64,000 bases of DNA from an uncultured Myxococcales bacterium (lineage in GTDB: Bacteria > Myxococcota > UBA4151), in NCBI GenBank assembly GCA_964013405.1, contig CAXGWI010000005.1:1-64000 (forward strand). Reading direction: 5' to 3'. The translations under genes were made by a program, and so were the position numbers. Below, in pieces: positions 3 through 64,000 of this stretch (the stretch's first letter is position 1; each line of letters starts with the position of its first letter). The notes under the pieces are model-generated. The model was not told the origin of the DNA and did not search any database. It saw only the letters and a list, made by a program, of their open reading frames with translations.

Positions 3-998
3 ATCGCCCTTGATGGTGATGGAGATCGCTGGTCTGAGTCCTGCTCAACAGCGACCCATGGCTTAAGTCATTGCAGCACTGAGCGCCCCGCGGAGGAGGG
101 TTGGCAGGGCGGCGAGGCCACGGTGGCGGCGTGGCCCGGGACCTTGGCGGCCCAGGTTCACTGGGGTGAGCGGGCCGGACTCATCGCCTTTCAGCGCCAC
201 GCCAACCGCATCGCATGGTACGATCTGCGCCGGCGCCTGGAGCCCTGCAGCCCCAGCGCTGAGGGGCCCGGCTGCCCCGAGCCGGTCTGCGGCGATGGCG
301 AATTGCAGCGGGAGGAAGTTTGCGAGCCCGGCGCCGGCTGCAGCGATGAGTGCACCCTGGCGGAGTTGCCTGCTGGCGCTCCAGCGGCCGGTTTGGCCAT
401 CCCCTTTGCGCCAGCCACCTTTGCCACCGACCAGGGCGAGGTGCGCTTTCTGCAGGGCATCACCGTGAACCCGATGGTGACCTTGAAGGAAGTCGAGCGG
501 ACAACGGGGAATCAGCACTATGATAATTATGGCACATGGTATCACGATCGTGCCCAGTGCCGCCGCTGGGGTGGCGATTTGCCCAGCGAGCGCCAGTACG
601 AGTGGATCGCCACCGGCGGTGCGGGGCCTTTGGTCCGCCGCTACCCCTGGGGCGACAGCCCCCCCCAGCCGGCGAGCGCCATGTATTTAGGCGCCGATCT
701 GCGCAGCAGCCGAGCGGGCAGCCACTGGTTAGGCACCAGCGTGGAAGGCCTCGCCGACTTGGCGGGGAGCTTTGAGACCAGAGGACACTGGGTGCTCGAC
801 GATAGCGGCAGCGCCCCTTCGGGGATCGCACCCCAGCGGGGGCCCCGGGCCTCGCAGAATTCCGCTCCCCCGAAGAAAGGGGGCTCGAAGACTCTGGGGA
901 TTGATCAACTGCCCTCCGGGGCTCGCTTCACGAGCTTCAACCGCGACACCAGCAACCACGGTGTGGGTCGTTGTGTGTGGTCTGTCGTTTCTCCCTGA
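3..998 (+). CDS. DGR target protein, 5'-partial: Myxococcus Cys-rich repeat plus FGE-sulfatase/C-type lectin-like C-terminal domain carrying the VR
   Basis: Frame is open from base 3, so the gene starts upstream of the window. It has a CGDGELQREEVCEPGAGCSDEC repeat and FGE-like motifs W..C...GGDLPSERQYEW, RRYPWG, GLADLAG, KKGGS and G.GRC. Confidence 0.9.
   Translation: MALDGDGDRWSESCSTATHGLSHCSTERPAEEGWQGGEATVAAWPGTLAAQVHWGERAGLIAFQRHANRIAWYDLRRRLEPCSPSAEGPGCPEPVCGDGELQREEVCEPGAGCSDECTLAELPAGAPAAGLAIPFAPATFATDQGEVRFLQGITVNPMVTLKEVERTTGNQHYDNYGTWYHDRAQCRRWGGDLPSERQYEWIATGGAGPLVRRYPWGDSPPQPASAMYLGADLRSSRAGSHWLGTSVEGLADLAGSFETRGHWVLDDSGSAPSGIAPQRGPRASQNSAPPKKGGSKTLGIDQLPSGARFTSFNRDTSNHGVGRCVWSVVSP
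909..995 (+). repeat. DGR variable region (VR)
   Basis: Matches the reverse complement of 2614-2700 at 77/87 nt and encodes the last 29 residues of the target, LPSGARFTSFNRDTSNHGVGRCVWSVVSP. Confidence 0.97.
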
Positions 999-1008
999 GC
1001 CTTGATGG

Positions 1009-1031
1009 GTCGTCCGCCGGGGGCGGACGAC
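1009..1031 (+). other. GC-rich hairpin/cruciform downstream of VR (DGR target-recognition element)
   Basis: Perfect 10-bp stem GTCGTCCGCC / GGCGGACGAC with a 3-nt GGG loop, 10 nt after the target stop codon. Confidence 0.85.
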
Positions 1032-1045
1032 GCCAAAAAAAAAGC

Positions 1046-2002
1046 TTAGCGGCAGCGCCCAAGGAGCCCCCGGCCTGCCGCCGCTCGGGAGCCCGATTGG
1101 GCCTTCAATTTGCCCCATCGCCGGCGCCGCTTGCTGTTGGCTCGCAGGGGCCGATCTCGCTGCACTAAATAACCAAGAAAGGCGATCGGCTCCGAACTGG
1201 GGCACAAAAAGGTCTTGTTCAAGTTCGGCCGGAGCCGAAGTTTAGCCAATTCCACTTCGATCTCACGATGCAGATTGATGAGGTCCGCTTTCGAACCGCC
1301 AATCAAGAGGTCGTCGACATAGCGAACCCAAGGGAGGCCAGCCGCCTCGATCCGCCGATCAACAGGCATCAGATACAGGTTGCCGAAATGCTGGCTGGTG
1401 AGGTTGCCGACGGGCAGGCCATGGGGCCGAAGGCAGTCAAACAGGCTGTCATCACCAAACCAATGTTGCACTCGCTCGGGGTTGCGACCGTGATCGATGA
1501 TGCAATCCATGACATCGAGATATTGACGATCTTTGATGAGGCGGCGGAGTTGCGCCTTCAGCAGTTCGTGGTCGAGACTACCAAAGTACTTTTTGATGTC
1601 GAGTCGCAACACCCATGGATGGCGCTGAACCAGGCGCCGCGCCCTGCGAAGACCGGCATCCACACCCAGACCCCGGCGATTGGCGACGCAGCCCGATAAA
1701 AGCCTACGCTCAAGTAAAGGCTCGAAAGCGCCACAGAGAATTTGGTGAACCACTCGGTCACGATATGGCGCCGCGCTGATCCAGCGGGGTTTGGGATCGA
1801 GAATGTGAAATTCATAGGGATCACTCGGGCACCAGATACCGGCCGCTAAATCTTCTCGGAGCCGAGCCAGTTCGTCACCCAAGCGGGTATGAAAGCGGAG
1901 CACGCCTTGCTGGTTTCGCTTGCCCCTCCGGGCCCGTTGAGCCGCTTTGAGGAGTTGGGGCCACTCCAAGGCCCACGACAATAAGCCCTGGACTCGCCTC
2001 AT
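1046..2002 (-). CDS. DGR reverse transcriptase (318 aa)
   Basis: RT motifs PKPRWI, YRDRVVH, LRLDIKKYF, GLPVGNLTSQ (the SQ variant typical of DGR RTs), RYVDD and FLGY. ATGA overlap with avd at 1999-2002. Confidence 0.96.
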   Translation of the reverse strand: MRRVQGLLSWALEWPQLLKAAQRARRGKRNQQGVLRFHTRLGDELARLREDLAAGIWCPSDPYEFHILDPKPRWISAAPYRDRVVHQILCGAFEPLLERRLLSGCVANRRGLGVDAGLRRARRLVQRHPWVLRLDIKKYFGSLDHELLKAQLRRLIKDRQYLDVMDCIIDHGRNPERVQHWFGDDSLFDCLRPHGLPVGNLTSQHFGNLYLMPVDRRIEAAGLPWVRYVDDLLIGGSKADLINLHREIEVELAKLRLRPNLNKTFLCPSSEPIAFLGYLVQRDRPLRANSKRRRRWGKLKAQSGSRAAAGRGLLGRCR

Positions 2003-2346
2003 GAACGAGATTGAATCGATCGGCGCCAGCCACCGAGTTGTCGACCGATTTCGGCAATCTCCGTCGCTGCGTAACCGTACTGCCGTTGCGATAATGCCCG
2101 CAGGTCCATGGCCATATGGAGGAGCAAGCGCAGTTCATCCAAGTGCTCATCCGCCTTCGCTAAAGGGCGGTCCAGTCGTTTGGCATGGCGACTGCGAACC
2201 AGGGCCAAACAGAGTTGAGTGCCGGCGGATTGCAGTCGCTCACCCAACTGAAACCGCAAGCAACGGTCGAACTGGACAGCGTGTCGAGTCAGCCAGAGGT
2301 TGAGCTGGTAGCTTCGATCGAGGATGGGAAGGGAAGGGTGCTGCAC
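1999..2346 (-). CDS. avd: DGR accessory variability determinant (Avd, four-helix bundle), about 115 aa
   Basis: LPILDRSYQL..WL, RFQLGERL, LSQRQY and EIGRQLGGW are Avd-like. GTG start at 2346 has AGGAG 7 nt upstream, so the ORF-track start at 2403 is probably too long. Confidence 0.92.
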   Translation of the reverse strand: MQHPSLPILDRSYQLNLWLTRHAVQFDRCLRFQLGERLQSAGTQLCLALVRSRHAKRLDRPLAKADEHLDELRLLLHMAMDLRALSQRQYGYAATEIAEIGRQLGGWRRSIQSRS

Positions 2347-2613
2347 GCGATGACTCCTGGGCGTTAAAAGAGACCGATAACCACAGGCAAATGGCCGAGC
2401 CACTCGCTCTGCTGTAAAACAAAAGACCCCCGGACAAGGGCGCTCGGCCGCGATTGCAGCCTACGAGCCCCGACGTCCGAGGAGACCCGCTAAAGCGAGC
2501 CTGATTTGCTCCGGTGCCGATGGGCACCGAACCTGCGAGAGCGAGCGCTGAACCTCGACTTGGATTCGCCCCACAGCCTTAACCATGGGACCTCGACCGA
2601 CTGTCGAGGGCCT

Positions 2614-2700
2614 GGGAGAAACGACAGACCACACACAACGACCCACACCGTTGTTGTTGTTGTTGCGGTTGTTGTTCGTGTTGCGAGCCCCGGAGGGCAT
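2614..2700 (-). repeat. DGR template repeat (TR), non-coding RNA template
   Basis: Minus strand reads ATG CCC TCC GGG GCT CGC AAC ACG AAC AAC AAC CGC (AAC)x5 GGT GTG GGT CGT TGT GTG TGG TCT GTC GTT TCT CCC. It is an AAC-rich copy of the VR. Confidence 0.97.
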
Positions 2701-2811
2701 ATTGTTTGCGTCCGCACCGCAAGGCGCCTATCGCCGAATCCAAGAGGCGACGCCAATTTTCTGGCTCGACCGCAAATATCCCTTGGTTCCTCGCGACCAC
2801 GGGGAAGAAGC

Positions 2812-4011
2812 CTAAGTCGTGTACTCGCTGTTTAAGGTCACGTAGTTGTGGCCCAGATCGCAGGTCCACAGGCGCCGGCCTTTGTCGCCGTTGTTGAGAT
2901 CGAGGACAAAGCCGTAGCGGCGCTTTTCCATGAGCGCCGAACAGTGAGCCCAATCGGCCGCCACGGGCATGCCCGCTTCGAAGAGCAAGATCGATTCGCC
3001 CTCGGCGGTGAGATGGAGCCGGGCTTTGTCCGGGTCGAACTGGGCTCGGCTGCGGCCCGCCGCCGCCAAAATCCGCCCCCAGTTGGGATCGGCGCCGTGA
3101 AAGGCCGTCTTGCACAACAAGCTGGTGGCCACCGCCCGGGCCGCATCGTCGGCCTGGTCTTTGGTGGCGGCCCCGCTCACTTGGATCTCCACCAAACAGC
3201 GAGCCCCCTCGCCGTCGGCTACCATCTGCTGGGCGACGCTGCGGCAACAGGCGAGCAGCGCCCGCTGAATCTCGGCCAGGGTGTTTTCGCTCAGCGCCTC
3301 GCCCCCATCGGGGCACAGCAGCAGGGCCGTGTCGTTGGTGCTGGTGTCCCCATCCACCACGATGGCATTAAAGCTTTTTCGCACCACCCGGTCCCAGAGA
3401 TCGGCCAGCAACAACTTGGGCAAAGGCGCATCGGTGATGGCAAAAGCCAACATGGTGGCCAGGTTGGGGGCGATCATCCCGGCCCCTTTGCCCACCACCG
3501 TCACCGTGTAGGAACCCACCGTGGCGCTCTGGATTTTGGGGCCTTGATCGGTGGTCATGATGGCCTGGGCAAAAGCCATCAAGCCTTCGTTGCCGTCATT
3601 TAACTGGGAAAAAGCCGCCGGCAGGCCGCCCAACAAAGCCTCGGCGTCGAGGGGGCGACCGATGACCCCGGTGCTCGCCACCTGGATCTCATAGGCCGGA
3701 CAACTTAACTGGCTCGCCACCTGCTGGGCTGTGGCCTCCGCCGCCGCCATCCCCGCCGGGCCCGTGCAGGCATTGGCGTTGCCCGAGTTCACCACCACGG
3801 CCCGGCACCGCTCGCCCGCGCCGTGGGCTCGGCTCAATTGAACCGGCGCAGCCACCACTTGGTTTTGGGTAAAGCGGGCCGCCAAAAGGCCGCTTTTTTC
3901 GGCCACGATGAGCCCTAAATCCAGTTGCCCTTCGCCCTTTAAGCCGCAGTGCACGCCGCTCAGGCGGAAGCCGGGGACAGCCTTCGCCCCCTCGAGCATC
4001 GAGATGGTCAT
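2812..4011 (-). CDS. argJ: Ornithine acetyltransferase / N-acetylglutamate synthase ArgJ
   Basis: NSGNANACTG, KGAGMIAPNLATML (autocleavage site), DGDTSTND, DGEGA, DPNWGRI. Confidence 0.97.
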   Translation of the reverse strand: MTISMLEGAKAVPGFRLSGVHCGLKGEGQLDLGLIVAEKSGLLAARFTQNQVVAAPVQLSRAHGAGERCRAVVVNSGNANACTGPAGMAAAEATAQQVASQLSCPAYEIQVASTGVIGRPLDAEALLGGLPAAFSQLNDGNEGLMAFAQAIMTTDQGPKIQSATVGSYTVTVVGKGAGMIAPNLATMLAFAITDAPLPKLLLADLWDRVVRKSFNAIVVDGDTSTNDTALLLCPDGGEALSENTLAEIQRALLACCRSVAQQMVADGEGARCLVEIQVSGAATKDQADDAARAVATSLLCKTAFHGADPNWGRILAAAGRSRAQFDPDKARLHLTAEGESILLFEAGMPVAADWAHCSALMEKRRYGFVLDLNNGDKGRRLWTCDLGHNYVTLNSEYTT

Positions 4012-4139: not shown

Positions 4140-5561
4140 GTGCCAGCCCTGAGGTTTCACGTGCTTGCTTTGTCGCTCCGCCTTGTTTCGGTTTGGGCGC
4201 TGATCGGTCTCAGCGCCGGTTCCGCGTGGGCGAGCCTGTGCTCCAACGACGCCCAATGCAGCCGAGCCTGGGAGCGTTGCCTTTCAGGCCACGGCATCTC
4301 CAGCCAATGCGGCCCCGAGCCCAAGCTGCTGAACTACAAATGGCAACTCATCGGTGAAAGCGGCAGCAACTGTGGCTTTACCGAGACCGTCCGCCTCACC
4401 GGCAATTATGGCGAATGCACCACCGACAGTGATTGCAGCGACGACCGAGTCTGCGCCCAGGGATTTTGCCGCCAAGAACGCTGCGTGGGCCGGGTCAGCT
4501 ATTATGTGGATCCGGCCGGCAGCGATGATTTTTCGTCGGCGGAGCGCAGCAAATCAACCCAAGCGGTGGAAGATGCCATGCGCAGTTGGAAGCTGGTGCC
4601 CTGTACCGTCTGGGACGCAGCCTCCCGAGACGTGCCCGACAACATGACCTGGAGCGCCGCCAACGATGGCCTCAACAAGTTCTTCTTCATGGAGGAGGGC
4701 TTTCGGGGCCTGGGCGGGCCCAGCACCCTGGGCATCACCGTCTCCCACTTCCAAGGGGGCGGCTCCCCCACCAGCGACGCCGACATCGTCTTTAACGGCC
4801 AAGATCACCGCTGGACCAGCCGGGACGCCGGCAGCGGCAGTACGGATATTTTTTCCGTCGCTCTGCACGAGATCGGTCACTTTTTGGGCCTGGGTCACCC
4901 CTGTGAACTGGCCCAAGGGGACTGCTCCGTGGACGCGGTCATGAACCCCACCTGGAGCGGCCAGCCCGAAGTGGGCCCCCGCCCCAGCGATGCTCTGGGC
5001 GTCTGCGAGCTCTATCCCGGCGTTCGCCCCCCGGTGGACGACGGCAGCATGCGCTTGGGCGAGCCCTGCACCACCGATTGCGAATGCGCTTCGGGGATCT
5101 GCCGCTACGGCCAATGCAGCCGTCGCTGCCGCATCGATGACCCCTGCCCCCAGGCCGGCGGCACCAAATGCGTGCTGGCCCGCAACGGGGAAGGCCTGTG
5201 CATGAGCCCGGTCTTCGTGGGCGAAGGCCAAGCCAAATACCCCCTGGGTGCCCAGTGCTCCCCCCGGGAGGAGCACAAGTGTGAAAGCGGTCGATGCACC
5301 TTTGTCGACATCCGTGGAGTTCGCTATGGTCTCTGCACCACCGCGTGCTCCGATGATGCCGACTGTTCCCCAGGTACGGTCTGTCGGGACGGCAGTTGTC
5401 TCTTAGACGACCAGGTGGCTGAGCCCTGCACCTCGGGACCCGATCCCGTGGATCCAGGCGAGGGCTGCTCCTGCCAAGGGAGCGGCTCGGGTCTGGCCTT
5501 ATTGATGATGGGCGGCGCGTTGTTTCTGCGACGACGCCGCGAGAGGAGTTCGTTCCCATGA
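4140..5561 (+). CDS. Matrixin (M10) zinc metalloprotease with Cys-rich repeats and MYXO-CTERM-like anchor
   Basis: Signal peptide, HEIGHFLGLGH, Met-turn AVMNP, and a C-terminal GCSC-hydrophobic-RRRR tail. Start is uncertain. Confidence 0.88.
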   Translation: MPALRFHVLALSLRLVSVWALIGLSAGSAWASLCSNDAQCSRAWERCLSGHGISSQCGPEPKLLNYKWQLIGESGSNCGFTETVRLTGNYGECTTDSDCSDDRVCAQGFCRQERCVGRVSYYVDPAGSDDFSSAERSKSTQAVEDAMRSWKLVPCTVWDAASRDVPDNMTWSAANDGLNKFFFMEEGFRGLGGPSTLGITVSHFQGGGSPTSDADIVFNGQDHRWTSRDAGSGSTDIFSVALHEIGHFLGLGHPCELAQGDCSVDAVMNPTWSGQPEVGPRPSDALGVCELYPGVRPPVDDGSMRLGEPCTTDCECASGICRYGQCSRRCRIDDPCPQAGGTKCVLARNGEGLCMSPVFVGEGQAKYPLGAQCSPREEHKCESGRCTFVDIRGVRYGLCTTACSDDADCSPGTVCRDGSCLLDDQVAEPCTSGPDPVDPGEGCSCQGSGSGLALLMMGGALFLRRRRERSSFP

Positions 5562-6109
5562 GAAGTCTTTTGCTGTTGAGCAGCCTTTGTGTGGCCAGCG
5601 CCGCCCAAGCCACCGTCGTCCTGAAAATGGACCGGGCCGAGATGACCCAGATGAGCGATGACGTGCTGATGGTTCGAGTCGGTGCCCAGCGGGTGGTGGA
5701 AGAACAACCCGGCGCCCTGGTGACCCTGACCGATCTGGAAGTCCTCGAAAGCTTCAAAGGCAAGTACGAGGCCGGCGACACCGTGCTCTTGCAGCAAGCC
5801 GGCGGGGTGAAGGGTGACTGGGTGATGCACATCCCCGGCAAGAACACCTACCGTTTCGGTGAAACTTTGGTGCTCTTTTTAAATCGTCACCGAGACCGGG
5901 TGGTGCCCGTGGGCGTCGGCATCGGCCGCATGGTGGTCGAGGGGGAAGGCGACAGTGCCCTGTTGAAGGAAGAGTACGGTGATGTGGCCTTCGCTGAGCG
6001 TAACCCCAAAGGGAAAATGCGCTTCATGCACGGACCCCCGCCGAGCAAGCCCGTGAAACTCAGCGTCTTTCGCCGCTGGATCAGCAGTCTCTTGGAGGGC
6101 TCGCGCTGA
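5558..6109 (+). CDS. Secreted hypothetical protein resembling the N-terminal domain found on or next to myxobacterial matrixins
   Basis: Signal peptide ending AQA, then the pattern TVV..M...EM...SD...V.V, LKG-like, Q.GG and GE.LVLFL. Overlaps both neighbouring genes. Confidence 0.7.
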   Translation: MRSLLLLSSLCVASAAQATVVLKMDRAEMTQMSDDVLMVRVGAQRVVEEQPGALVTLTDLEVLESFKGKYEAGDTVLLQQAGGVKGDWVMHIPGKNTYRFGETLVLFLNRHRDRVVPVGVGIGRMVVEGEGDSALLKEEYGDVAFAERNPKGKMRFMHGPPPSKPVKLSVFRRWISSLLEGSR

Positions 6110-8097
6110 TGCGTCTTCTCCTCGTCATGACCGCCTTAAGCCTCGCCACCCCGGCGGCGGCTTGGCAGGCGCAGATCGGCAAGTGGAGCCTCGATGGCTC
6201 GCCCAACATCGCCTACCGCGTGAACACCCGCGGGGCTCCCGGCATCGCCGGCGACTCGGATCTGCAAGCCATTCGAAACTCCTTCGACAGTTGGAGTGGT
6301 GTGAGTTGCTCCACCATCAACCTGGTGGAGTCTGGGACCACGAACAATTTACCCAACGCCCGCCGGGACAACGTGAACAATGTTTGGTTTGAAACCCGTG
6401 CCAATGCTTGGAGTTATGGCTCCGGCACCCTGGGCATCACCGGGACCTCCTTCTCGGGCTTTGGTTGTCGGGGCAATGGTCGGCCCGCTCGGGATTGCTG
6501 GATCGTCGATGCCGATGTGCAGTTCAATGCGGTGCAACACGCAGACGGCTGGAGCACCAACGGGCGCGGCGGCTTGGACGTGGAGTCCATCTCCGTCCAT
6601 GAGATCGGGCACAGTCTCGGCCTCGATCACCCCTGCGAAAACTGCACCGTCGATGCGGTGATGACCCCGTCGTATGTGGGCTATCCCTTTCGCTATCCCC
6701 GCCAGGATGACACCAACGCCGTTTGCAGTCTTTATCCCGGTGAGCGGGGCGGCCTCGGTTGGGGCTGCAACCGAGACTCCGACTGCAATTCCCGTATTTG
6801 CCTGGATGACGGTTCCAACGATTACTGCACCGTGACCTGTGGGAACTGCCCGGACGGCTACGAGTGTCGGGCCGACAATGGTCGCAATGTCTGCCAACGG
6901 GCGGCCGCTGGCAGTGGCGCGGCCCAGCAAGGCGAAAGCTGTGCTGGCGGTCGGGCCTGCGGACCGGGCCTGCTGTGCCTGGGCGATCAAAACGACGCCA
7001 CCTGCTATGCCGAGTGCGACCGGGGCAATTGCGAGGCCGGCTTTATTTGCGAAACCTTCTCATCCAATGGGCAAAACATCTCCATTTGCTTGCCCGGTGG
7101 CACCACTGCTGAAGGGGAGCCATGCGATTCGCTGTATGCCTGCGCGGCGGGCCTGGAATGCGCCCCTGTGGGTCGTAGCTATGTTTGTGCCAGAGGCTGC
7201 CGGAGCGACAGCGATTGCAACGAGCGCGAGAACTGTCAGGAGTTGACCCGGCCCGGCATCGACACGGTCCAGGTCTGTGTGGAGTCCAACACCGCCCTCG
7301 AAGGGGAGAGTTGTCAGCGTAAGCGTTGCGCCGATGGTCTGACCTGCTTGAGTGATGCGGGCGAACGGCTTTGCTTTCGCAACTGTCGCAGTCGGGCCGA
7401 CTGCAGCTCGGGCCTCGACTGCATCGAGATCAGCGATACGATCTCCATCTGCTATGCCAACAACTGCACCGAAGACCGGGACTGCGAGCGGGGTAAAATC
7501 TGCCTCGAAGGCAGTTGCGTGGACGAGACCGGTGGCTGCCGAGCCGATACCGAATGCCGCCGGGGTGAGCTCTGTGAAAACGGTGAATGCACGCCCTTCG
7601 AAAGCAATGGTGATCTGCCGGACAACGAACGCTGCGCCGACGATGGCGACTGCGTGTCGGGTCGCTGTGCAGCCATTGGCTCCACTCGGGTTTGTCGCCC
7701 CGGCTGCGATCGCCGCCTGGGGCACTTCGAATGCCCCGAGGGCTTTGGCTGCATCCCCGACGATGAAGGCAATGGCTATTGCGAGCGCGGCGCCGACGAA
7801 GGGGGCCAAAGCATCGGTAGCCCCTGCAGCAGCGCCATCGAATGCCGCCAAGGCATCTGTGGCAGCGACTGGGGCTTTGGTGGCGAATGTCTCACCTGGT
7901 GTGGCGAGAACTTCATCTGTCCCACGGGCTATCTCTGCGATTCGGCCAACAACCCCATGCCCGGGCTCTGTGTGCCCGAAGGGGGCGGTGTCGCCCCCGG
8001 TCTGGCCTGTGCCTGTGAGGGCACGACACCGGACTTCTGGTTCATGGGATTAGGACTGCTCGCAGTGCTCGGTTGGCGTCGCCGCCGCTCAGCCTAA
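6109..8097 (+). CDS. Matrixin (M10) zinc metalloprotease with long Cys-rich region and MYXO-CTERM-like anchor
   Basis: HEIGHSLGLDH, AVMTP Met-turn, many C..D.DC repeats, ACAC...LGLLAVLGWRRRR tail. Confidence 0.9.
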   Translation: MRLLLVMTALSLATPAAAWQAQIGKWSLDGSPNIAYRVNTRGAPGIAGDSDLQAIRNSFDSWSGVSCSTINLVESGTTNNLPNARRDNVNNVWFETRANAWSYGSGTLGITGTSFSGFGCRGNGRPARDCWIVDADVQFNAVQHADGWSTNGRGGLDVESISVHEIGHSLGLDHPCENCTVDAVMTPSYVGYPFRYPRQDDTNAVCSLYPGERGGLGWGCNRDSDCNSRICLDDGSNDYCTVTCGNCPDGYECRADNGRNVCQRAAAGSGAAQQGESCAGGRACGPGLLCLGDQNDATCYAECDRGNCEAGFICETFSSNGQNISICLPGGTTAEGEPCDSLYACAAGLECAPVGRSYVCARGCRSDSDCNERENCQELTRPGIDTVQVCVESNTALEGESCQRKRCADGLTCLSDAGERLCFRNCRSRADCSSGLDCIEISDTISICYANNCTEDRDCERGKICLEGSCVDETGGCRADTECRRGELCENGECTPFESNGDLPDNERCADDGDCVSGRCAAIGSTRVCRPGCDRRLGHFECPEGFGCIPDDEGNGYCERGADEGGQSIGSPCSSAIECRQGICGSDWGFGGECLTWCGENFICPTGYLCDSANNPMPGLCVPEGGGVAPGLACACEGTTPDFWFMGLGLLAVLGWRRRRSA

Positions 8098-62702: not shown

Positions 62703-64000
62703 TCATTTCAGCCACCAACCCAGTGTGACAAGGCCCGCAAGCCCGAGAAGGCCGATGAGACTCCGCAGCGTCGCCGTCTGCCGCTGCGCTCGGTCCACGG
62801 CCTGTTGATAGGGGATATTGGAGAAGCTCACCATGCCATAGAGGGGGTGAAAGCCTGGCAGGATACGTTCCAGGGCCTGCTCGATCTTCTTTTGCATCAG
62901 GAACAGGGGCGAGGCCACTGCCGCCCGCATTTCGTGGTAGTGGTCGAGGGCGAGCTGCCGGATGGCAAAGCCATGGGGACAGCGCTCGGCACTGAAACGA
63001 CTCAAGGCCTCAGCTTGGGGATGTTGGGTCAACAAATCGTCCAGGAGGTTGGCGCTCTCAAAGGCTGCGTTCATGCCTTGGCCATAAAAAGGCACCACTG
63101 CGTGGGCCGCATCGCCGATGAGAACCACCCGTTCACCATAGTGGTAAGGGCTGCATTTGATCGTGGCGAGACCGCTATGGGGGTTGCTGAAAAAGTCGTC
63201 GATCAGCGTTGGCATGAGGGGGACGGCATCGGCGAACTGCTCATCGAAAAATCGCTGCACATCAGCGGGCTCTTTGAGCCGCTCGAAACACCAGTCGGTC
63301 TCGGACTTGAACGGTAAAAACAGGGTCACAGTGAAGCTCTTGTCCAGATTGGGCAGGGCGATGAGCATGTAGTCTTGGCGGGGCCAGATGTGGAGCCCTT
63401 TGGGGTCGATGGCGAAGTTGCCATCCGCGGCCGGCGGGATGGACAGTTCCACGTAACCTGAGTCGATCCACGTTTGGTCGTAGTTCAATTGACTCTGTTT
63501 CATCACCTGGTCGCGAACCGCAGAAAAGGCGCCATCGGCGCCAATCACCAAACTGGAATCATGGCTCTTCCGGTCACCAGAAGGGTCTTGAAAGGTCACC
63601 CTTCCCGTCTCTGCTTCGAGGGCAACGCAGGCTTGATCGAAGTGAAATGGAACGCCCGCAGCCTCCGCTTCGTTCATGAGGAGTGCGTTGAGATCTCGAC
63701 GGCTAACGCTGCGTATCGCTTGGTGCGCTTGACCGTAGGCTTGGAAGTTGAGCGCGCCCCCACGGTCATGGAGAATTCGGCCGGGCATCGGCAGGCTTTG
63801 CTCCAAGACGGTCTCTTGCAGACCCACTTTCTCAAGAGCCGTCAGCCCGCGGGTTGAAATAGCCAGATTGATGGATCGTCCGGCTGGAATATCCACTCGC
63901 CGTAGATCCGGGCGCCGCTCCCAAACCTCGACCCGCTGGCCTCGACGGGCCAAGTAGAGGGCCATTAATGATCCGGCCAGGCCGGCACCGACGATGTGAA
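62703..64000 (-). CDS. kmo: Kynurenine 3-monooxygenase, 5'-partial
   Basis: HIVGAGLAG at the window edge, GRSINLAISTRG, HIWPR, GDAAHAVVPFYGQGMN. Confidence 0.92.
   Translation of the reverse strand, partial: HIVGAGLAGSLMALYLARRGQRVEVWERRPDLRRVDIPAGRSINLAISTRGLTALEKVGLQETVLEQSLPMPGRILHDRGGALNFQAYGQAHQAIRSVSRRDLNALLMNEAEAAGVPFHFDQACVALEAETGRVTFQDPSGDRKSHDSSLVIGADGAFSAVRDQVMKQSQLNYDQTWIDSGYVELSIPPAADGNFAIDPKGLHIWPRQDYMLIALPNLDKSFTVTLFLPFKSETDWCFERLKEPADVQRFFDEQFADAVPLMPTLIDDFFSNPHSGLATIKCSPYHYGERVVLIGDAAHAVVPFYGQGMNAAFESANLLDDLLTQHPQAEALSRFSAERCPHGFAIRQLALDHYHEMRAAVASPLFLMQKKIEQALERILPGFHPLYGMVSFSNIPYQQAVDRAQRQTATLRSLIGLLGLAGLVTLGWWLK

Follow-up and report, generated by a model that had tools for sequence, protein, structure and literature searches.

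A probable cellular diversity-generating retroelement with a shortened reverse transcriptase in an uncultured myxobacterium

A reverse transcriptase gene situated beside the housekeeping gene argJ in a bacterial chromosome raises the question of whether it belongs to a working diversity-generating retroelement (DGR) and, if so, which protein the element diversifies. The locus lies at the beginning of contig C5 (CAXGWI010000005.1) in the genome of an uncultured marine Myxococcales bacterium (G000; 3.9 Mb, 94% complete, 244 contigs), of which the first 64 kb, hereafter the window, were analysed. The favoured answer, to which we assign a probability of roughly 0.8, is a chromosomal DGR with a target protein whose tip varies at template adenines between populations; the element likely alters the end with which a large surface lipoprotein binds its ligand. 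The original prediction had called the element complete, which applies to the cassette and not to the target gene, whose 5' part is missing at the contig start. The assignment of the contig to Myxococcota is supported by the ArgJ protein, 98% identical to one labelled Myxococcota.

Repeats, reverse transcriptase and alleles of the variable repeat

The pattern of differences between the template repeat (TR) and the variable repeat (VR) carries this reading. Over positions 910-996 (87 nucleotides), all ten mismatches (10/10) fall on adenines of TR, which number 20 (hypergeometric P = 4.6e-8), and the predicted 87-bp TR with a matching VR at the 3' end of the target gene is thus confirmed. VR is located at the 3' end of the open target frame with its AAC codons in frame; nine of the ten varied codons are AAC-templated and one is ACG-templated, and these ten codons have a coding capacity of up to 1.5e11 amino-acid variants. 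The adjoining segment would act as the initiation of mutagenic homing (IMH) element, by analogy with the role described for Bordetella phage BPP-1 in the available text of PMC5758913. It differs from IMH*, its counterpart at the TR end, at positions 996, 998, 999 and 1003. BLAST searches with TR and VR across G000 returned the window pair only, and five matches to the hairpin-core pattern in this genome included no second VR-linked site. FGE paralogs on contigs C173, C30 and C10 of G000 carry no TR match, although paralogs cut at contig ends could hide VRs in the gaps.

On the minus strand, argJ is followed by TR, a spacer, avd and the reverse transcriptase (RT) gene, with 112 nucleotides separating the argJ end (2812) from TR; the cassette therefore directly follows argJ, as had been stated. 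The target gene is encoded on the plus strand and faces the RT gene, and TR and VR form inverted repeats. Since contigs from metagenome runs X1 and X8 span VR, the hairpin and the end of the RT gene, this convergent junction is real.

The RT is intact, bears both motifs originally noted (GNLTSQ and YVDD) and matches Pfam RVT_1 (E = 2.5e-14). Its scores fall short of the cut-offs of the group II intron model TIGR04416 (82.7 bits against 300) and of the retron and DRT defence models (35 against 235; 42 against 390). The closest solved structure by sequence is BPP-1 bRT (E = 4e-26; 2e-10 for a group II RT), and the AlphaFold model (pLDDT 92) matches 8UB7, the BPP-1 bRT, first (TM 0.86, rmsd 1.8). 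In a quick tree of 57 rows, the window RT and five relatives (51-53% identity) form one group on a long stem (SH-aLRT 100), placed among RTs with verified TR/VR pairs, and eight of the non-DGR rows retained in it cluster separately. Tree and fold match alike place the enzyme with DGR RTs, rather than with those of group II introns or retrons. Its nearest named homologs belong to Haliscomenobacteraceae, Laspinema, Gemmataceae and Ca. Venteria, and no second DGR RT was found in G000. This RT also occurs on a 145-kb contig on record. The avd gene is likewise intact and coupled to the RT gene by the predicted ATGA; its product matches NCBIfam DivGenRetAVD (E = 1e-20, 73.9 bits with a cut-off of 80) and Pfam bAvd (39 with a cut-off of 40).

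Parts of the locus were met in 19 marine metagenome runs, five of which were compared, all as contigs. A contig of run X2 carries 13 differences over 909-995; 11 of these are listed, and ten of the 11 lie at TR adenines (P = 8e-5 within 939-965). The RT and spacer pieces of this run are identical to the window over 491 nucleotides. In run X8, which comes from another study, all four differences within 946-957 are at TR adenines, a weak test in that A sites make up 8 of the 12 letters compared. Because VR alleles from other runs differ at TR adenines, the DGR has probably been active recently between populations, with no rate implied. In the sister genus (locus L048, genome G002), the VR proteins P0121 and P0122 each have 6 of 11 codons unlike the L048 TR, all of them reachable by A-to-N changes, and all 13 variable codons of the target homolog on contig C16 of genome G004 end in C. 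Overall, the locus is a genuine cellular DGR that is probably active.

Several family assemblies are affected by the repeat. P0122 reads through VR into TR-spacer sequence and is probably a VR/TR assembly chimera; G002 contig C129 (L041 1-60) starts inside TR, and family assemblies break or collapse at this point. G004 contig C175 (L043, 196-3285) and P0123 represent another type of target, whose hairpin is the same but whose VR sequence differs. The two are identical at 324 of 367 positions upstream, 21 of 33 in the putative VR and 12 of 12 at the end, a pattern that hints at a second TR, unassembled in G004.

Table 1. Features of the DGR locus, in window coordinates
Feature	Position	Strand	Remarks
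Target gene, 3' part only	3..998	plus	331 codons; 5' part cut by contig start
Myxobacterial-type Cys-rich repeat (CxxPVCGDG...C...C)	273..356	plus	aligns with DUF4215 repeats of homolog G004:C175
FGE-sulfatase-type C-type lectin (CLec) domain	510..995, approximate bounds	plus	Pfam FGE E = 0.015
Variable repeat VR	910..997	plus	variable codons 927-959; alleles in runs X2 and X8
IMH-like element	959..1005	plus	A-free invariant stretch 959-995, then a tail unlike the TR end
Post-VR hairpin/cruciform	1009..1031	plus	perfect 10-bp GC-rich stem, 3-nt loop (GGG)
DGR reverse transcriptase	1046..2002	minus	318 aa; GNLTSQ and YVDD; distal thumb missing
avd accessory gene	1999..2346	minus	115 aa; GTG start behind AGGAG; ATGA overlap with RT start
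Spacer (Sp) RNA	2347..2602	minus	two blocks conserved across two genera: 2549-2559, 2457-2468
Template repeat TR with IMH* end	2603..2699 (TR proper 2612-2699)	minus	2603-2612 predicted to pair with Sp 2550-2559
argJ	2812..4011	minus	housekeeping; directly upstream of TR on the same strand; above both ArgJ cut-offs

The short thumb and the RNA elements

The window RT has 87 residues after the YxDD motif, within the 82-90 of the four family proteins and compared with 112 in BPP-1, and at the thumb end it is about 30 residues shorter than RT relatives. The W-x-G-H thumb motif is found in none of the four family proteins and in 109 of 115 other homologs; the survey covered 116 such homologs, one of them without a recognisable YxDD, and the tails of the rest have a median length of 121 and a minimum of 92 residues. 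Viral RTs have complete C termini at 52 of 80 loci, where all tails comprise at least 112 residues and 45 of the 52 contain the motif. No RT tail was found in another frame in the window, L048 or G002, and an X2 piece spanning the early RT stop (966-1057) is unchanged. In the structural model, the thumb consists of one confident helix (290-304) followed by a low-confidence end. Judging from the aligned sequences, loss of the distal RT thumb is family-wide.

In BPP-1 the thumb, around which Sp RNA forms a ring, moves as the enzyme passes from the resting to the active state or back, according to the accessible text of bioRxiv 10.1101/2023.10.23.563531. The available part of Wu et al. (PMC5758913) reports that roughly 20% of DGR RTs are extended at the C terminus; no mention of a thumb-less DGR RT lineage was found in that part, nor in a narrow literature search. 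If active, the shortened RT tests what cis-primed mutagenic reverse transcription needs of the thumb and the RNA ring. The 318-aa RT and the 115-aa Avd could also be a compact starting point for DGR-based mutagenesis tools.

Conserved block 2549-2559 of the spacer is the predicted primer strand, with its terminal A at 2549. The last 10 nucleotides of TR would pair with Sp 2550-2559 at 9 of 10 positions, and cDNA synthesis primed in cis would therefore begin near TR 2613, the point at which TR and VR cease to be identical. The model for this prediction is BPP-1, in which a TR117-129:Sp47-56 duplex primes at SpA56 (accessible text of bioRxiv 2023.10.23.563531). The distance from the TR end to the primer A is 54 nucleotides in the window and 69 in L048. 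The TR:Sp blocks are identical in both genera, with no covariation, and single-sequence folds favoured other pairings; the fold of region 2400-2770 has a z of -5.6, its L048 equivalent of only -1.5. A terminator-like stem with a U run, located between the spacer and avd (2426-2441, minus strand), could end a separate TR-Sp RNA, and the number of such sites is within chance (4 found, 2.8 expected). A promoter scan of 900-3000 returned no sites, and no RNA dataset was listed among the runs with parts of the locus.

In the proposed mechanism, a transcript from the argJ side would, as in BPP-1, carry TR-Sp followed by avd and RT. Pairing of the Sp block with the TR end would prime the cDNA, the Avd-RT complex would misread adenines, and the cDNA would replace VR at the IMH element and the hairpin.

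The predicted post-VR hairpin is present as a perfect 10-bp stem with a 3-nucleotide loop. Its fold alone is unremarkable against shuffled sequences (z = -1.8). Across four family sequences, 39 of 40 cells are paired and four pairs have changed on both sides, a covariation signal that kinship can inflate. The family loop of 3 nucleotides (GGG or CGG) differs from the 4-nucleotide GRNA loop reported for phage DGRs in the available text of PMC3240598. A role of the hairpin as an intrinsic terminator was rejected: the plus-strand run behind it consists of A, and the minus-strand T run precedes the stem.

The alternative that survives best is that the DGR is dead or dying, the thumb loss having crippled the RT and the VR alleles being old variants reshuffled by recombination. 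The missing W-x-G-H segment would fit this, the thumb and the Thumb Ring RNA both being important for catalysis in BPP-1 in the available account of that system, as would the presence of this RT in only two of the six genomes of the class, the existence of one contig without the cassette, and heavy recombination at the locus. However, six sequences, which come from two genera and are 51-53% identical, share the truncation and keep their frames open, the RNA duplex and the hairpin are conserved, the hairpin with covariation, and at least 11 VR differences occur in the very run whose cassette pieces equal the window. Loss of function thus appears improbable, and a DGR that still varies its target remains the preferred explanation.

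The target protein and its chromosomal setting

The lectin-like character originally assigned to the target is weak when drawn from the window protein alone and stands by way of homologs and fold search. The target family profile matches FGE structures and Treponema TvpA 2Y3C (E = 2e-32), and the model of the target (pLDDT 52) matches FGE folds at E = 4e-6; profile and model together suggest a C-type lectin fold for the tip. The Cys-rich repeat of the window protein itself has no Pfam match.

Homologs of the target are encoded on G002 contig C12 (1724 aa, 40% over the shared part) and G004 contigs C16 (42%) and C175, and include P0127 (1684 aa). Their domains comprise Big_1 (E = 7e-11), Cys-rich DUF4215 repeats, a weakly scoring FG-GAP and, at the C-terminal end, FGE, and a lipobox pattern occurs in four of the five homolog N termini checked. 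The window gene is probably, by this sequence comparison, the C-terminal part of a lipoprotein of about 1,700 aa with Big_1, Cys-repeat and FGE-CLec parts, of which about 1,400 residues are missing. The G002 homolog on C12 was also considered as the target of the G002 TR and rejected; it has no match to this TR and no hairpin, and is a paralog.

A hidden Markov model search for the full-length target in G000 returned only fragments at contig ends, and a search for longer target-like proteins found none, which is weak evidence. A candidate N terminus is encoded at the start of contig C56, behind rseP and a Ser/Thr kinase gene. As rseP comes next to argJ in the sister genus, downstream of it, on account of this synteny the C56 N terminus was joined to the window C terminus; C56 thus probably holds the N terminus of the target. 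The assembly of the sister species G001 is broken at the same two places as that of G000. An expanded family of Big_1-like lipoproteins of 1,700-2,200 aa is encoded on G000 contigs C49, C50, C60, C97, C221, C23 and C178; its members have a common N terminus and differing C-terminal ends, and several are cut at contig ends.

In invasin and intimin, a Big_1 stalk carries a terminal lectin-like domain. The target would similarly be a lipoprotein of the outer surface in which an invasin-like Big_1 stalk ends in an FGE-type lectin. Given the rest of the explanation, the protein most likely serves to grip prey cells or particles, a use to which we give about an even chance; self or kin recognition, phage-receptor escape and a sensor role share the remainder. 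In any case, the target offers a plausible way to study how an uncultured class of Myxococcota recognises prey, particles or kin.

Considerably less probable than an adhesin is that the active cellular DGR diversifies an anti-invader sensor of the clade-5 conflict type. Such a role would agree with the occurrence of Haliscomenobacteraceae among the nearest named RT relatives, since H. hydrossis is in the published clade-5 set (PMC10907252 supplement), and with the Ser/Thr kinase gene directly upstream of the probable N terminus. It is at variance with the signal-peptide or lipobox starts and the Big_1, FG-GAP-like and Cys-rich extracellular repeats of the homologs, and no MoxR, vWA, TIR or CHAT family was reported among the flanking proteins scanned (PADLOC not run).

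The setting of the DGR is cellular, with argJ on one side and probably rseP and the kinase gene on the other. The earlier statement that no phage gene is visible in the window holds for structural proteins, none of which occurs among the 37 window proteins (NCBIfam) or the 18 flanking proteins (PHROGs). The upstream inspection that had been proposed also yielded neither phage structural nor integration genes in the flanks, the join to C56 being inferred and the unassembled middle of the target gene lying outside this coverage. The two integrases of G000 are encoded on other contigs, C175 and C58. The weakest alternative, a prophage or integrated mobile element in the unassembled upstream gap that carries the DGR and encodes the target as a phage or island protein, could appeal to the window beginning at a contig end, to about 1,250 unassembled target codons and to the cassette-less allele, but is very unlikely given that the full-length homologs are cellular lipoproteins amid metabolic genes, that the candidate upstream contigs C56 and C23 contain cellular genes only, that the sister species is broken at the same two places, that the family repeat pattern has 0 matches in viral contigs and viral RTs are at most 43% identical to the window RT, and that no terminase (Terminase_6N) match was found in the 94%-complete genome.

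Several observations tell against the reading of the locus as an active DGR with a surface lipoprotein target. In X2, one change (943 G>A) falls where the template has no A, and two of the 13 differences are not listed, the X8 comparison is weak, and the VR alleles are single Logan contigs of depth 2.5-2.7, unlinked to the cassette pieces. Both Avd matches are slightly below the curated cut-offs, and the RT lacks a segment kept in nearly all relatives, so its activity could be reduced. The target model is poor, cut N termini of this family also occur on contigs C23, C97 and C178, and the start on C56 does not match the lipobox pattern.

Cassette movement and comparison with known systems

A contig of run X3 (depth 3, with 48 nucleotides on the short side) connects position 1021, in the hairpin loop, to the stop of argJ (2812) with 10 other letters between, skipping the 1,790-nucleotide cassette; it may derive from a related organism. 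The DGR, originally regarded as resident, does have cellular flanks, but in view of this contig it is possibly less resident than proposed. The reverse complement of the 10 inserted letters has six differences from the left hairpin arm of the window, which equals the count reported for this piece; the X3 allele may have a fully re-paired hairpin, or the agreement could be a chance coincidence.

In the three runs of study P1, the tallied differences amount to 2/1,560 cassette, 75/2,138 argJ and 58/848 target bases, a few short pieces being left out. Cassette pieces are more divergent in X4 (14/709 bases) and X8 (41/750), which argues against a single sweep. The identity between G000 and G001 has a median of 75% over 114 1-kb fragments and peaks at the C56 gene start (96%; C56 1-347) and next to argJ (92-91%; C5 4311-6810), so that, judged by sequence identity, an interspecies recombination hotspot around the adhesin gene is likely. 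In the sister genus (L048, G002) the cassette occupies a different site, where it is co-directional and follows the hairpin immediately. G004 (85% complete) contains two hairpin-tailed targets, and no RT was found there. In G001, a member of the same genus, neither RT, argJ nor target tip was found, an uninformative result because the assembly gap is located exactly there. On the simplest reading, which is preferred for this reason, the cassette probably moves between strains by homologous recombination in its flanks, with no mobility gene.

A broader proposal, which we advance tentatively, is that of a class-specific DGR lineage whose RT still hypermutates after losing its distal thumb helices, the thumb segment that other DGR RTs conserve being dispensable or replaced by RNA. 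Its 1.8-kb TR-avd-RT module, devoid of a mobility gene, would be exchanged by homologous recombination within and between species of a deep-branching marine myxobacterial group, so that a fixed adhesin gene beside it alternates between a hypervariable and a frozen state. The locus illustrates how a chromosomal DGR may spread through a population, or disappear from it, with neither an integrase nor a transposase of its own.

The original label of a BPP-1-type DGR is correct for the components and does not extend to gene order, target orientation or the RT thumb. Shared with BPP-1 (mtd-avd-TR-brt) are the RT fold, Avd, the AAC-rich TR, adenine-only TR/VR differences, IMH/IMH*, the GC-rich post-VR stem and a predicted TR:Sp duplex with the primer A about 54 nucleotides past the TR end. 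Unlike BPP-1, the window DGR is cellular, has the order TR-avd-RT and a target on the opposite strand that faces the RT; its RT, 29% identical, has 25 fewer residues after YxDD and lacks the SWxGH thumb segment. Homing of BPP-1 is unimpaired by target inversion, according to the available text of PMC3240598.

The order TR-avd-RT is rare but known. It occurs in 4 of 372 rows of the table of Wu et al. 2018, each with the target upstream (PMC5758913), and in 2 of 80 TR-bearing loci (of 94 loci scored), both with VR on the same strand. Architecture B of Wu et al., 'TG-TR-AVD-RT' (Pseudanabaena biceps, Clostridium CAG:575), has the same order, but the published targets are upstream on the same strand, whereas the window target is downstream and convergent; the sister-genus locus L048 shares the co-directional layout. 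With Treponema denticola TvpA and Legionella LdtA the window DGR has in common its chromosomal location and the C-terminal FGE-type CLec of a lipoprotein. It differs from these and the Wu systems by the target stalk of about 1,400 aa with Big_1 and Cys-rich repeats, and by the absence of an HRDC gene.

The nearest RT homologs come from taxa of the clade-5 cellular DGRs (Roux 2021; Dore 2024), and these named neighbours suggest membership in this clade. In contrast to clade 5, the family RTs group by themselves on a long stem (6 rows, SH-aLRT 100), the window target resembles a surface adhesin rather than a ternary conflict-system sensor, and there is no adjoining transposon. Among the clade-5 comparison systems, Thiohalocapsa has population-level presence/absence of RT and TR.

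The host lineage, put forward in the original prediction as a novelty, is one of many and adds little; what deserves attention is the thumb loss, together with the convergent arrangement and the hints that the cassette may be present or absent. In a sample of 401 Myxococcota genomes, 15 match the RT profile, 13 of them outside the family, and adenine-biased TR/VR pairs were found in 10 of the 12 genomes examined outside it (12/17 loci). The dataset of Dore et al. 2024 (PMC10907252) includes one clade-5 DGR RT from Myxococcota (Bradymonadia). DGRs in Myxococcota are not unprecedented, and the lineage alone is no surprise. The term 'Myxococc' was absent from 13 files searched of the Roux et al. 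2021 supplement (2 files unsearched), and literature searches pairing DGR with Myxococcota or Myxococcales found none. Layouts seen among other loci of the phylum, L097 (G027:C2), L101 (G097:C19), L099 (G120:C6) and L084 (G073:C82), comprise avd-RT-TR with three targets, an arrangement with two targets, one in which the RT faces avd-TR, and one whose TR and VR are inverted.

Elsewhere in the window, two tandem matrixin-type metalloproteases with MYXO-CTERM sorting tails are encoded at 4140-5561 and 6109-8097; the second of them and its position near argJ are conserved in the family. A flavin monooxygenase (62703-63965), whose best match is the VioC family at a score under the cut-off, heads a gene run that continues beyond 64000 on C5 (L187) and which we take, from the families present, to resemble a tryptophan/kynurenine catabolic cluster.

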